Below, one piece after another: positions 27,729-34,100 of a stretch of 64,000 bases of DNA (the first letter of the stretch is position 1; every line of letters starts with the position of its first letter). The notes beneath the pieces are model-generated. The model was not told where the DNA came from and did no database searches. It saw only the letters and a list, made by a program, of their open reading frames with translations. The stretch comes from an uncultured Planctomycetaceae bacterium. Its GTDB lineage: Bacteria; Planctomycetota; Planctomycetia; Isosphaerales; Isosphaeraceae. The DNA is taken from NCBI GenBank assembly GCA_963833985.1, contig CAWIAD010000001.1, positions 2,176,001 to 2,240,000 of the forward strand, read 5' to 3'. The position numbers and the translations under genes are program-made.

Positions 27729-28537
27729 CTACACCACGGTGGATTCTTCCGCCAGTGAGGCAGGCAGTCCGCCGAACTTTCGCTCGCGCCCGGCGTAGGC
27801 CGAGCAGGCCTCCAGCAGGTCGTTCTCGCGGAAATCGGGCCAGAGCGTGGGAGTCACCCAGAGCTCGGTATAGGAGATCTGCCAGAGCAGGAAGTTACTG
27901 ATCCTCATCTCGCCGGCCGTGCGGATCAACAAATCCGGATCGGTCATCCCCCGCGTGTTCAGGTAGGATTCGAAGAGGCTCTCATCCACCTGCGCGGGAT
28001 CGATGCGGCCCGCGCGCACGTCGAGCGCCAGCCTCGCGCGGCGTCGCCGATTTCGGTCCGGCCGCCATAGTTCACCGCCAGGCAAAGGATCATGCCCGTG
28101 TTGCCTGCCGTCTCCCGCGTGGTCCGGTCGAACTCGGCGAGCACTTCCGGCGGCAGTCCCTCGCGCCGGCCGATCATCCGCAGCCGGACGTTCTGATCCA
28201 TCAGCTCGGCGCGCTCCACGATCAGGAAGTGACGCAGCAGCCTCATGAGGAACCTGAGCTCGCGTGGCGGCCGCTTCCAGTTCTCGACCGAGAAGCAATA
28301 GAGAGTGAGCTGCTGGAGACCCAGGCGGCAGCCTTCCTCGACCACGGCTCGGACGCTCTGGATGCCGCGCCGGTGCCCCACGATCCGCGGCAGACCACGG
28401 CGCTGGGCCCAGCGCCCGTTGCCGTCCATGATGATCGCCACGTGGCGAGGCAGCTGCTCGGGTTTCAGGCCGACCGCCGCGATGCGTGCCAGCCCTTCAT
28501 CGGTGATGCCGGCGCCTTCTCGGAATCCTGAGTGCAT
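27729..28537 (-). CDS. uppS: Undecaprenyl/polyprenyl diphosphate synthase (frameshift ~28036)
   Basis: HVAIIMDGNGRWA, FSVENWKRP, NYGGR, then DPDLLIRTAGEMRISNFLLWQ in the second frame. Confidence 0.95.
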
Positions 28538-30181: not shown

Positions 30182-31420
30182 ATGCGCACAGTTCTTGTCG
30201 GATTCACAGCCCTGCTGTGGGCCATCACGGCCGCAAAAATGAGCCATGCCGGGGACCTGGCCCCGCCTGTGCACGTTCTGGCCGGAGGGCAGGCAGTGGA
30301 TGTGGCACGGGTCGGCCACGCCGCTCCTTGCTACGGCGATGTGGACGGAGACGGCGTCAAGGACCTCCTTGTCGGCCAGTTTGACGACGGGCGGATGAGG
30401 ATCTACCGCAACCTCGGTACGAATGCGAGTCCCCGGTTCGATGGCTACGAGTGGTTCGAGGCCGGCGGCAGGGTCGGGACCGTCCCGGCGGGGTGATGCA
30501 TCGGCTTCACTCCACAGTTGGTGGACCTCGATCGTGACGGCAGACTCGATGTCCTCTCCGGCTCCTGGCCTGGTGAGATCTTCTGGTTTCGCGGCCTGGG
30601 CCAGGGCAGGTTCGCCGCCGGCGTGACTCTCCTGGCAGCTTCCGGAATGGCCGTGAACGTCGGCCATGCGGCCTCGGCCTCGGCTTGCGACTGGGACGGG
30701 GACGGCGATTGCGACCTGATCGTGGGCAACATCCTGGGTGAGGTTCATCTCCTGCGCAATCTCGGCCCGGCGTCCTCGCCTCGGTTCGTTACTGCGGGTC
30801 GGCTCGAGGCCGCCGGAGAGCCGATTGCCATGGCTTCTGGCGATAGCGCTCCGGTCGTGGCCGACTGGGACGACGACGCCAGAACCGACCTGGTCATCGG
30901 CTGCGGCGATGGCAGCGTGGTCTGGTTTCGCAATGTAGGCAAGCCAGGCTCACCGCGGCTGGCCGCGGCGCAAACGCTCGTCTCTGCCAGCAAGCTGGGC
31001 TGGAACTACGACGCGGCGCGCAAGCCGGGACAGTGGGGAGCGCGGGCGAAGGTCTGCGTGACGGACTGGAACGGCGACGGCAAGCTCGACCTCTTGCTGG
31101 GCGACCTCTGCGCGGGGCATCTGGGTAAACCCGCCCAGACCGATGCCGAGAAACGCGAAGAGATCGCGGCTCGGGATGAGCTGCCCCGGCTCAAGGAGAG
31201 ATGGGTCGCCACTTATGAGGAATACGGGGAACTGCGTCAGCGGATCGCCACCGGGAAGGCTTCGGCCGGGGAGGATGATGGGAAAGCCGGCGAGTTACAG
31301 GCTGCGATGAAGCGAATCAAGGAGGAGATCGTGGCGGTGCAGAAGACCCAGGCGCGGTACAAGCCGGGGTACCAGTACCACGGCTTCGTGCGGGTGTTCC
31401 TGAGAACGGGGCCGAGCTGA
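30182..31420 (+). CDS. Secreted FG-GAP/VCBS-repeat protein, probable selenoprotein (in-frame TGA 30494-30496)
   Basis: ORFs 30092..30496 and 30518..31420 share a frame. Readthrough gives signal peptide, DVDGDGVKDLLVG, VPAG-U-CIGFTPQLVDLDRDGRLD, then further DWDGDG/DWNGDG repeats. Confidence 0.75.
30500..30532 (+). promoter_or_regulatory. Candidate bacterial SECIS hairpin
   Basis: Upper stem TCCAC (30511-15)/GTGGA (30521-25) with loop AGTTG, 19 nt after the UGA; lower stem ATCGG/TCGAT. Confidence 0.55.
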
Positions 31421-31459: not shown

Positions 31460-32618
31460 TCAGAACCGTCCCCGCAGATCGATGATGGCGTCGCCGTTCT
31501 GGGGGAGCATGTCGAAGCGGTTGTCGGGAACTTTGTTCACCGTAAGACTCTGGACATGGATCTCCTCGAGCATGACCGGCCTGTCCTTGAGATCGGGATG
31601 CGGCCTGGCGGTGAAGCTCTCTCGCCGGATGGTCATGGGCAGCCAGATCCCCGGCTCGACCTGCTTCAGGTCTGCCGTGATCCAGCGGTTATGGACCCTG
31701 CCGTCGAGTGCCATCTCGCGCTTCCGCGGCACCAGGCCGTGGTCGCGGTCAAGCCAGATCCGGTCCGTGTACTCGCCCTTGAAGAAGCCGGGCTCGATGA
31801 ACGAATTCAGGTTCCCCTTCAGGACCACGCAGGTTGCGCCGTCGACGACCTGGGTCTTCGGTTCCAGCTCGTACGAGTGGTTCTTGATCCATTCAGCGAG
31901 CTGGAAGATCGCCTGACTCTTGCGCAGGTTCGCTGCCCGCGGGGTCAGGGACGTGCAGGCCCACGGCACCAAGGTAGGAGGACACCTGGAAGAAGTTCGG
32001 CTGCGAGGTGGTCGACCAGACCTCGTAGGAGAAGCCCTTCGGTTCTATCGCCCTGCGGCTCCAGAGCGTCTTCCCGTTGTAGCCGTACGTCACGTCCTGG
32101 TCGCTCCGCGGGCGCACGGACGGGTCACGCCTGCGCATGATCTTGGCCCCCCGAGCCTCGTTGGCCTTCATGCTGGCGATGGCCCGGTCGTATTGCTCCT
32201 TGAGCTTCTTCTGGTTCTCCTTGATGAGCGGGGGCGCGTCGGCCGCGGGCTCGGTCGGGACGAACAGGCCGTTCTCGTCGACGGAAGACAGGTAGGTGAC
32301 GTGCTCAGGCTGGATCTGCCGCCGGTACCGCATCGGACCCTTGAACGCCTCGTCCCACTCGTCGCTGGGCAGGAACATCTGGTTCATGTACTCCGGGAGA
32401 GCGCGCAGCTTGTCGGGACTGAGGTTGCTGGTGGTCTCCAGCTTGTAGTGAACCTCAAGGCTCTTGATCCGCTCGACCTGGTGCGCGAGCTGCGCCTTGA
32501 TGGCGCGGGTCTCCGCTGATTCCGGAGCCTGCTCGCGGGCGGCGAAGGCCAGCCCGGCCGCAAGCGCCGAGGCCCCCAGAAAGAGGGTGCTGATCTGTTT
32601 CACCTGGATTCGGTTCAT
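31460..32618 (-). CDS. Secreted hypothetical protein, possibly LolA-like fold (frameshift ~31940)
   Basis: Signal peptide; C-terminal QVVDGATCVVL, RIWLDRDHG, GIWLP, VNKVPDNRF pattern; third gene of the ECF operon. Confidence 0.6.
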
Positions 32619-32636
32619 CGGTGGTCTCCCGGTCGT

Positions 32637-33553
32637 TCAGGGTCGGTCGGATGGTCTGGGCGTGCTGTCTCGGGGTTCGGAATAGACCTGGCGTCCCAGG
32701 TCGGGATCATTGATCTCGAGCGTCACGTCGGGGGGCGTGTGGAACTCGAGCAGGTCGGCCGGTACATTCCCCGCGCCGGGTAGTCGTAGACGGCCTCGCT
32801 GATCATCCCGTCCCATTGCTCGGAGCGTTGCCGCAGGGGCAGGAGCGAATCGGGATCGAACCAGATGGTATCGACCTGAGGCCTGGAATTCGCGTCGCCT
32901 GCACCGGGCCAGCGCAGCGTGACCTTGCGCACGGCACGTCCCTGATAGGTGTCTTGCTCGATGCGGATATCCGCCTTGTGCGTCTCGGCCCAGTGCACCA
33001 GTGCCTCGTTGTTCTGTATCAGGCCGGCGTGCTCGAATTCGCTTTGCCGGCCCAGGAGCCGGGTCGACCAGGCCGCGACGAGTCGACCGGGCACGTCCCA
33101 GCGGAATTCCCAGCGGCCGTTGTTGACCACCACGCCCTTGACCGTTCCGCCCGAGCGTGTCTCGCTGCGCCCGCCCTTGCCGCGGGCATACCACGTCTCC
33201 TCGGTGCGATCGATCGCCGGCCCCTTCAAGATCACCACGCGATGGCACGCGGGCACCTCGGTCCAGGTGGATCGCACCGACTGGAGGAAGCCGGCCGCAG
33301 TCGCGTTGCGCGGCCGGGCCAGGAAGCCGACCAGGCCAAGAAAGAGGACCGCGGCCGCCACGGCAGCGAACCGCCTCCAGGACCAGAGGGCGACCGCTAT
33401 CGGGCGAATTGACGTCTCCTCGGCATGGTCAATGGTCGCCAGGCAGCGGTCGAGCAGGTTGCCAGGAACGGGCGGAGCGGCGAGCGATTGCAATCGGGCT
33501 TCAAGTCCGCCAGGCGGGGGCTTTGGTTCCTCGCAATCATGATCATGAAGCAT
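32637..33553 (-). CDS. Putative anti-sigma factor with TM and LolA-like periplasmic domain (frameshift ~32772)
   Basis: Short cytoplasmic LEARL...PPVP domain, RRFAAVAAAVL TM, C-terminal IWFDPDSLLP...YDYP; overlaps the ECF sigma stop. Confidence 0.65.
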
Positions 33554-34100
33554 GTTGATCCTCCCTTGTGGGCCGCAGAGACGGGTCCCAGGACGCGAGC
33601 TTGGAGGTGAGCCGGCGCTTCGCGGCGAAGTAGCGCCAGCGCGCGAGCCCCGCTGAGACCCCCTGGATGATTCCAATTTCCTCGTAATCCGCGTTCTGCC
33701 AGAAACGGAGCGTGAACGCCTCTCGGAGGTCTCCGGGCAGCTCGCGCACGGCCAGCTCGGCGGCCGCCTGGAACTCGCGATCCATTGCCGCTTGCTCTGC
33801 CGTACGCTCGGGGCCAGGGATCTCGGAAAGCACTGCGGGCCTGTACTCCCGGCGGTCACGCGCCTGCTTCCGCCAGAGGTTCCGGCCGATGGAATACAGC
33901 CAGGCCTTCGGGCTGACCTGCGGGGGAGACCGGTCAAGTCCACCCCAGAAGCCGACGAATGTCTCCTGGGTCAGGTCGGCGGACCGATCCGGAGAGCCGG
34001 TGAGCCGGCAAAACCAGCGATAGAGTGCGGCGTAGTGGGCCCGGACGAACGCCTCGCGTGAGGCCCGGTCAACGAGACGCGGCTCCGTTTCGTGCTCCAA
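33543..34100 (-). CDS. ECF RNA polymerase sigma factor
   Basis: DLTQETF, WLYSIGRN, LPGDLREAFTLRF, YEEIG. Confidence 0.9.
   Translation of the reverse strand: MEHETEPRLVDRASREAFVRAHYAALYRWFCRLTGSPDRSADLTQETFVGFWGGLDRSPPQVSPKAWLYSIGRNLWRKQARDRREYRPAVLSEIPGPERTAEQAAMDREFQAAAELAVRELPGDLREAFTLRFWQNADYEEIGIIQGVSAGLARWRYFAAKRRLTSKLASWDPSLRPTREDQHAS

Follow-up and report, generated by a model that had tools for sequence, protein, structure and literature searches.

Is the TGA that interrupts a planctomycete reading frame for an FG-GAP repeat protein a stop codon, or does it encode selenocysteine (Sec)? The frame lies in the window, the whole stretch of 64,000 nucleotides analysed here, which belongs to a host assembly of 10.2 Mb (96% complete, 2 contigs). 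The original prediction described two ORFs in one frame that are split only by a TGA, and translation confirms this: between 30182 and 31420 (plus strand) there is one frame of 412 amino acids, counting U105, and the TGA at 30494-30496 is its sole interruption. From the ATG at 30182, 104 codons lead up to VPAG and the TGA; directly 3' of this codon, the sequence continues with CIGFTPQLVDLDRDG, and the 307 residues that begin with CIGFTPQ close at the TGA at 31418-31420. Judged from sequence comparisons, we put the probability that this is one gene in which UGA is recoded as Sec at about 95% (Table 1). The prediction of a selenoprotein from a widespread five-bladed FG-GAP family that is absent from the current catalogue is strongly supported, and the reading of the UGA as Sec agreed with every computational test that had been proposed for it.

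Table 1. Features of the putative selenoprotein gene (positions in the window)
Feature	Position	Strand	Basis
Single CDS with predicted Sec105; putative exported FG-GAP/VCBS five-bladed beta-propeller, 412 aa	30182..31420	+	
In-frame UGA, predicted selenocysteine U105	30494..30496	+	conservation in homologues
Cys106, vicinal partner of the predicted Sec	30497..30499	+	Cys in 104/106 TGA contexts
Probable signal peptide; putative cleavage after residue 23	30182..30250	+	sequence, hydrophobic family N-termini
First FG-GAP Ca-binding loop, the sole one upstream of the UGA	30338..30364	+	Pfam, alignment
FG-GAP blades 2-5; Ca loops from 30524, 30689, 30863 and 31064	30524..31090	+	model, alignment
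Helical hairpin of two helices, an insert of blade 5 that some homologues have in shorter form or lack	31142..31357	+	model helices 298-333, 339-369
C-terminal G-x-V-W-type strand completing blade 5	31367..31399	+	model strand 373-383; G invariant, V 41/43
His46 of the G-H-A-A-P motif before strand A of blade 1; candidate active-site neighbour	30317..30319	+	
bSECIS-type hairpin; 5-bp stem, 5-nt loop, G at second position	30511..30525	+	

Conservation of the TGA codon

The sequencing reads gave one 151-nt contig of depth 2 that spans 30368-30518; it ends 22 nt past the TGA and is too short to count. Moreover, nearby genes show apparent frameshifts, which makes evidence from other genomes essential. 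Indels as the cause of every other gene break in the window, as originally claimed, were seen in part: at 27729-28537 and at 31460-32618, two overlapping ORFs lie in different frames, probably due to assembly indels. The former pair we take, from its sequence, to be an undecaprenyl-diphosphate-synthase-like gene; the latter is a secreted-protein gene downstream of the propeller gene. Judged by sequence appearance, an ECF-type sigma factor, an anti-sigma-like gene and a secreted protein (31893-34100, minus strand) run convergently towards the gene's 3' end. A search for a promoter or terminator of the gene gave no match.

The 107 best matches listed for 401 genomes of the phylum (E at most 1.8e-18, the window's own gene included) contain exactly one TGA in 105 cases and no stop in two (hand count), and neither TAA nor TAG occurs inside any of them. 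The TGA-bearing matches are spread over 80 of the other 400 genomes. In a set of 61 closer relatives, the three best same-genus copies retain the TGA; these homologues are about 75% identical in DNA, and the differences are biased towards third codon positions on both sides of the TGA. Such retention, together with the more than 100 distant homologues that keep the TGA, goes far beyond chance. The named homologues of the propeller gene belong to the Planctomycetota; in the phylum to which the Verrucomicrobiota locus L029 belongs, the TGA form was found in 4 of 301 genomes.

In an alignment of 125 loci retrieved from among the matches, 107 stops fall at the Sec column, and all of these are TGA; the offset is 0, or +1 in one clade that has one extra residue. 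In 106 distinct contexts, the residue after the TGA is Cys 104 times, and Asp (L136) and Arg (L185) once each. The terminal stops of the same genes are TAG in 48, TGA in 46 and TAA in 7 cases, with 5 frames remaining open. The stop-free members that were checked at the DNA level have Cys codons at the column, giving Cys-Cys in L106 and L162 and Cys-Gln and Cys-Arg in the two copies of L024; in L144, the motif is absent. Likewise, eight full-length database proteins picked from 150 matches have CC (five proteins), C-x (two) or no Cys (one), and Cys forms appear in at least three places of a 114-row quick tree. TGA or Cys at the column in homologues and coding conservation on both sides are as expected for Sec, and Trp, TAA or TAG did not turn up there; in one clade Trp precedes the TGA without replacing it.

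A representative search without a profile was dominated by large multi-repeat proteins. Of the first 80 loci from genome contigs, 7 were true family members (six TGA-Cys and one Cys form), and the other 73, from different FG-GAP families without the motif, were dropped, as was the off-register locus L147. One locus has the variant C-U-C-C around the UGA (L207:3021-3074, minus strand). A 5.1-Mb genome, G119, harbours ten matches (L110, L164-L166, L171, L174-L177 and L179), a lineage-specific expansion that includes a tandem pair.

A covarying hairpin and the selenocysteine machinery

The Sec reading is further backed by a covarying bSECIS-type hairpin that the original prediction had not seen. 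The part of the catalogue article that deals with the bSECIS model describes a loop of 3-9 nt whose first two positions include a G, a stem of 4-16 bp and a spacing of 16-37 nt (PMC13188914), and the hairpin in the window, with 19 nt between UGA and loop, agrees with this description in loop, G, stem and spacing. The G is found within the first two loop positions in 99 of 106 family members. The stem pair that links the wobble base of a Pro codon to the second base of a codon for Val or Ala is A-U in 68 members, G-C in 25, G-U in 5, C-U in 8 and A-C in none (n=106). The otherwise rare codon CCA is used at this Pro in 68/106 members, as compared to 95/1562 downstream Pro codons and to 3/151 for the same Pro in other repeats. 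The preceding codon ends in T in 96/106 members versus 19/151 in other repeats, and five to six of the six stem pairs are formed in 97/106 versus 6/151. When covariation was tested with 73 sequences, 91.6% of the cells paired, the covariation score was attained in none of 500 shuffles, and slid controls gave 29-50%. RNAalifold recovers the inner four pairs unaided, and the stem codons are lost in all four DNA-checked Cys copies. A point against the Sec reading is the weak core of the window hairpin: its folding energy is -5.9 kcal/mol, and -9.5 over 45 nt (model bound -7.5), a value that depends on the span and has no shuffled control. The 45-nt energies of -7.5 or below in 105/106 family members lack a control as well and carry no weight.

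The genome encodes the machinery for Sec insertion. Profile searches found selA (511.8 bits), selB (370.9) and selD (345.6), all above their cut-offs, and the tRNA-Sec(UCA) encoded by selC is the only UCA tRNA found. The selD gene itself encodes a selenoprotein, with one in-frame TGA (G000:C2:4294585-4295517, minus strand) in the context C-A-G-U-A-G-K. Across the phylum, selA is present in 79 of 80 TGA-bearing genomes as compared to 208 of 320 others; the one TGA-bearing genome with no selA match, G063, has selB. In agreement with such a link, the genome G344 (99% complete, single contig), which has the Cys-Cys form, gave no match for selA, selB or selC. There are also observations against it: the TGA form is present in G416 (76% complete), where selA, selB and selC gave no match, and Cys forms occur in the selA-positive genomes G375 and G453. 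The genomes are related, and kinship makes such tests overstate significance. The family offers a partial answer to the question why 288 of the 401 genomes of the phylum sample retain selA. In family f2 of this sample, selA was found in just 1 of 20 genomes. A genome-wide scan for UGA plus hairpin gave 54 of 802 candidates, which are mostly noise, and missed selD, hence it is no census. One of these positions, G000:C2:4615473 (minus strand), is likely to be a further selenoprotein gene, with the redoxin-like frame ADW-stop(TGA)-PFC (UxxC) and a 7-bp hairpin.

How else could the TGA be explained? It might be a real stop, with two genes coupled in translation and a single propeller built from their two products. 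TGA-TGC makes an overlapping ATG in 104/106 contexts, and databases store the 5' half as proteins of about 100 amino acids, 112/119 of which end at the TGA point (pattern match). However, this ATG lies in another frame, where it opens ORFs of 2-505 codons (median 27), and an in-frame ATG within 12 codons is present in just 5/106. Neither the column, which is never TAA or TAG, nor the existence of fused Cys forms fits two genes, and both the covarying hairpin and the link to selA would be left unexplained; we regard this arrangement as very improbable. A pseudogene or a sequencing error in an indel-prone assembly might be suspected from the frameshifted look of nearby genes and from a codon that the reads leave unsettled, but the TGA is shared by three same-genus genomes and more than 100 others, and this conservation refutes the idea. 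Just as negligible is the chance that a reassigned code or a special tRNA makes UGA a codon for Trp, Gly or Cys: Cys does align at the column, yet TGA is an ordinary stop here that ends the window gene and 46/106 family genes, and the sole UCA tRNA found is tRNA-Sec. If the UGA is a Sec codon within one gene, the hairpin just 3' of it would bind SelB, which would deliver Sec-tRNA, and readthrough would produce the full-length 412-aa protein, which is presumably exported. Gene finders halve this gene, and the result is a systematic mis-annotation as 'hypothetical' or 'VCBS repeat' fragments.

The propeller and its relation to known proteins

The protein matches FG-GAP_3 of Pfam (PF13517) with 84.6 bits (cut-off 26.9) and contains five DxDGDG Ca-loop repeats. 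The one repeat noted earlier upstream of the UGA was confirmed, and four more follow downstream. A hydrophobic stretch gives the N-terminus the look of a signal peptide. A structure was modelled from an alignment of 43 sequences (43 of 81 intended rows) with the TGA read as Cys; according to this model (pLDDT 95.1, pTM 0.89), the fold is a five-bladed FG-GAP propeller that needs both halves and that the Ca loops would stabilise. The beta-propeller of about 410 residues proposed originally is thereby refined to one of five blades with a helical hairpin insert. As a whole fold, it comes closest to five-bladed glycoside hydrolases (Z 18.8, rmsd 3.9, 254 aligned residues, 9% identity); by sequence, its relatives among PDB entries are CRTAC1, integrin alpha and ITFG2. 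Foldseek matches to Tc-toxin B subunits were rejected since they share the FG-GAP blades only.

U105 and C106 sit ahead of strand A of blade 2, in the loop that enters this blade. The loops before strand A form the face of FG-GAP propellers opposite the Ca loops. By the repeat register, the U-C pair would lie on this face, the ligand face, around the central funnel, and His46, Gln66-Phe67, Arg288, Lys/Arg290 and Asp308 may be its neighbours there. Position 46 is His in 37, Tyr in 5 and Phe in 1 of the 43 members; the other polar residues are conserved in 35 (Gln66), 37 (Arg288), 38 (Lys/Arg290) and 37 (Asp308) of them.

The original prediction placed the fold outside the classical selenoenzymes. 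This holds for the 119-family selenoprotein catalogue of 2026, where an entry for FG-GAP, VCBS, propeller or repeat proteins is lacking (Table 1, PMC13188914), but FG-GAP candidates of another architecture had been tabulated in 2016. Term searches for an FG-GAP or propeller selenoprotein found none in the main text and one supplement of BSepDB or in the main texts of deep-Sep and SelCysML, and the NCBIfam (release 20) selenoprotein models did not match any of 43 members; a match to FusH (20 bits, cut-off 999) was rejected as weak. Our literature search on FG-GAP, VCBS or propeller selenoproteins returned nothing relevant; the family may be listed in supplements to Haft and Tolstoy (2025) and to Deng et al. 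(2026). The 2016 table holds four FG-GAP/ASPIC-UnbV selenoprotein candidates that align to Gly (Table S9, PMC4807772). They resemble the present gene in being planctomycete FG-GAP genes split by UGA, with a SECIS called in three of four. By their description, however, they are set apart by an ASPIC/UnbV domain and by Gly in the closest match, whereas the propeller family has Cys at the column and a following Cys; the UnbV_ASPIC domain is found in 0/43 members, and the 17 ASPIC matches of the genome lie elsewhere than the propeller gene. The prediction concerns a large selenoprotein family, present in 80/400 sampled genomes of the phylum and in ten copies in one of them, on a fold that the current catalogue lacks.

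Like other bacterial genes with a bSECIS inside the ORF, the gene combines a UGA aligned to Cys and a G-containing loop 19 nt downstream with the presence of selA, selB, selC and selD; it differs in its host protein, a putatively exported FG-GAP propeller. Vicinal Cys/Sec pairs are common to SaoL, SaoC, HgcA, KCU-star and MbdU, with CU, and to the (2Fe-2S)-binding form 1, with GxUC, but these have unrelated folds, and here the pair runs U-C within a loop of a propeller. CRTAC1 (9etn), integrin alpha, ITFG2 and the Psathyrella lectin PVL share FG-GAP repeats with Ca loops; their propellers are seven-bladed, whereas the present protein has five repeats plus a helical insert, and TM-scores are just 0.3-0.4. 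Conversely, the glycoside hydrolases GH43, GH62, GH32 and GH159 share the five-bladed fold (Z 15-19), a comparison by fold alone at 5-12% identity, and the FG-GAP Ca loops and the U-C pair are features of the protein studied here.

Possible chemistry of the Sec-Cys pair

What might a Sec-Cys pair do in such a scaffold? FG-GAP and integrin-type repeats are known mainly for binding and adhesion. We lean slightly towards a redox centre: Sec105 and Cys106 would alternate between the selenol/thiol and a vicinal selenenylsulfide, the reduced pair would act on an oxidised substrate of the cell envelope bound in the funnel (peroxide, disulfide or another small molecule), and a DsbD-type electron chain would re-reduce the pair. 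The main clue is the C-terminal DsbD_N domain, which was found above cut-off and with its Cys pair retained in five of seven long members scanned (L181, L199, L205, L195 and P0089). The N-terminal domain of DsbD reduces periplasmic substrates, as stated in the part of the work that concerns this domain (PMC3322552). On a quick tree, the fusions fall in two separate, well-supported clades, which suggests a re-reducible redox site. The host genome, too, has two DsbD_N genes. Against a redox pair, most members, including the window protein, are without DsbD_N, and the partner Cys is replaced in 2/106 TGA forms as well as in several of the Cys forms. The wider proposal, that a widespread exported selenoenzyme on an FG-GAP/integrin-type scaffold performs DsbD-fed redox catalysis in the envelope and is among the commonest uses of selenium in Planctomycetota, has in our view an even chance of being correct.

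The pair might instead be a site for soft metals or metalloids (Cu, Hg, As), which would scavenge envelope ions or hand them on rather than catalyse redox reactions. The adjacent C/U motifs in HgcA, SaoL and MbdU (Table 1, PMC13188914), the conserved His46 nearby and the heavy-metal P-type ATPases that 3 of 111 neighbours encode on the upstream side (L163, L211 and L216) are consistent with this. Yet two of the three ATPase neighbours are one family, the neighbours are otherwise unconserved, and the DsbD_N fusions point to electron supply, so that we find a metal site unlikely, if still worth considering. Somewhat more doubtful is the idea that the oxidised vicinal ring serves a propeller that binds or modifies glycans, either as a shelf for binding or as a redox switch. 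The fold matches to glycoside hydrolases, the FG-GAP lectins among the Foldseek matches and the vicinal disulfides mentioned for propeller sites of PQQ dehydrogenases in one section of PMC13384848 would fit such a role. However, the fold matches reflect blade number, a glycan-gene neighbourhood is lacking, and the costly Sec would be hard to explain in a static role. A catalytic redox role and its alternatives are directly amenable to experiment: with a single codon, a defined hairpin and natural Cys-Cys forms, both readthrough and chemistry can be tested.

Conserved or recurring neighbours were absent among the 111 flanking ORFs, which indicate no pathway and count against the proposed function; also absent was synteny beyond the gene in the 1.5-kb flanks of three same-genus loci. 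L196 has a TPR insert instead of DsbD_N, and in P0135 an N-terminal region that looks kinase-like by eye precedes the family part. At L197:3251-6001 (minus strand), the upstream neighbour matches the Pfam Binary_toxB Ca-binding domain.
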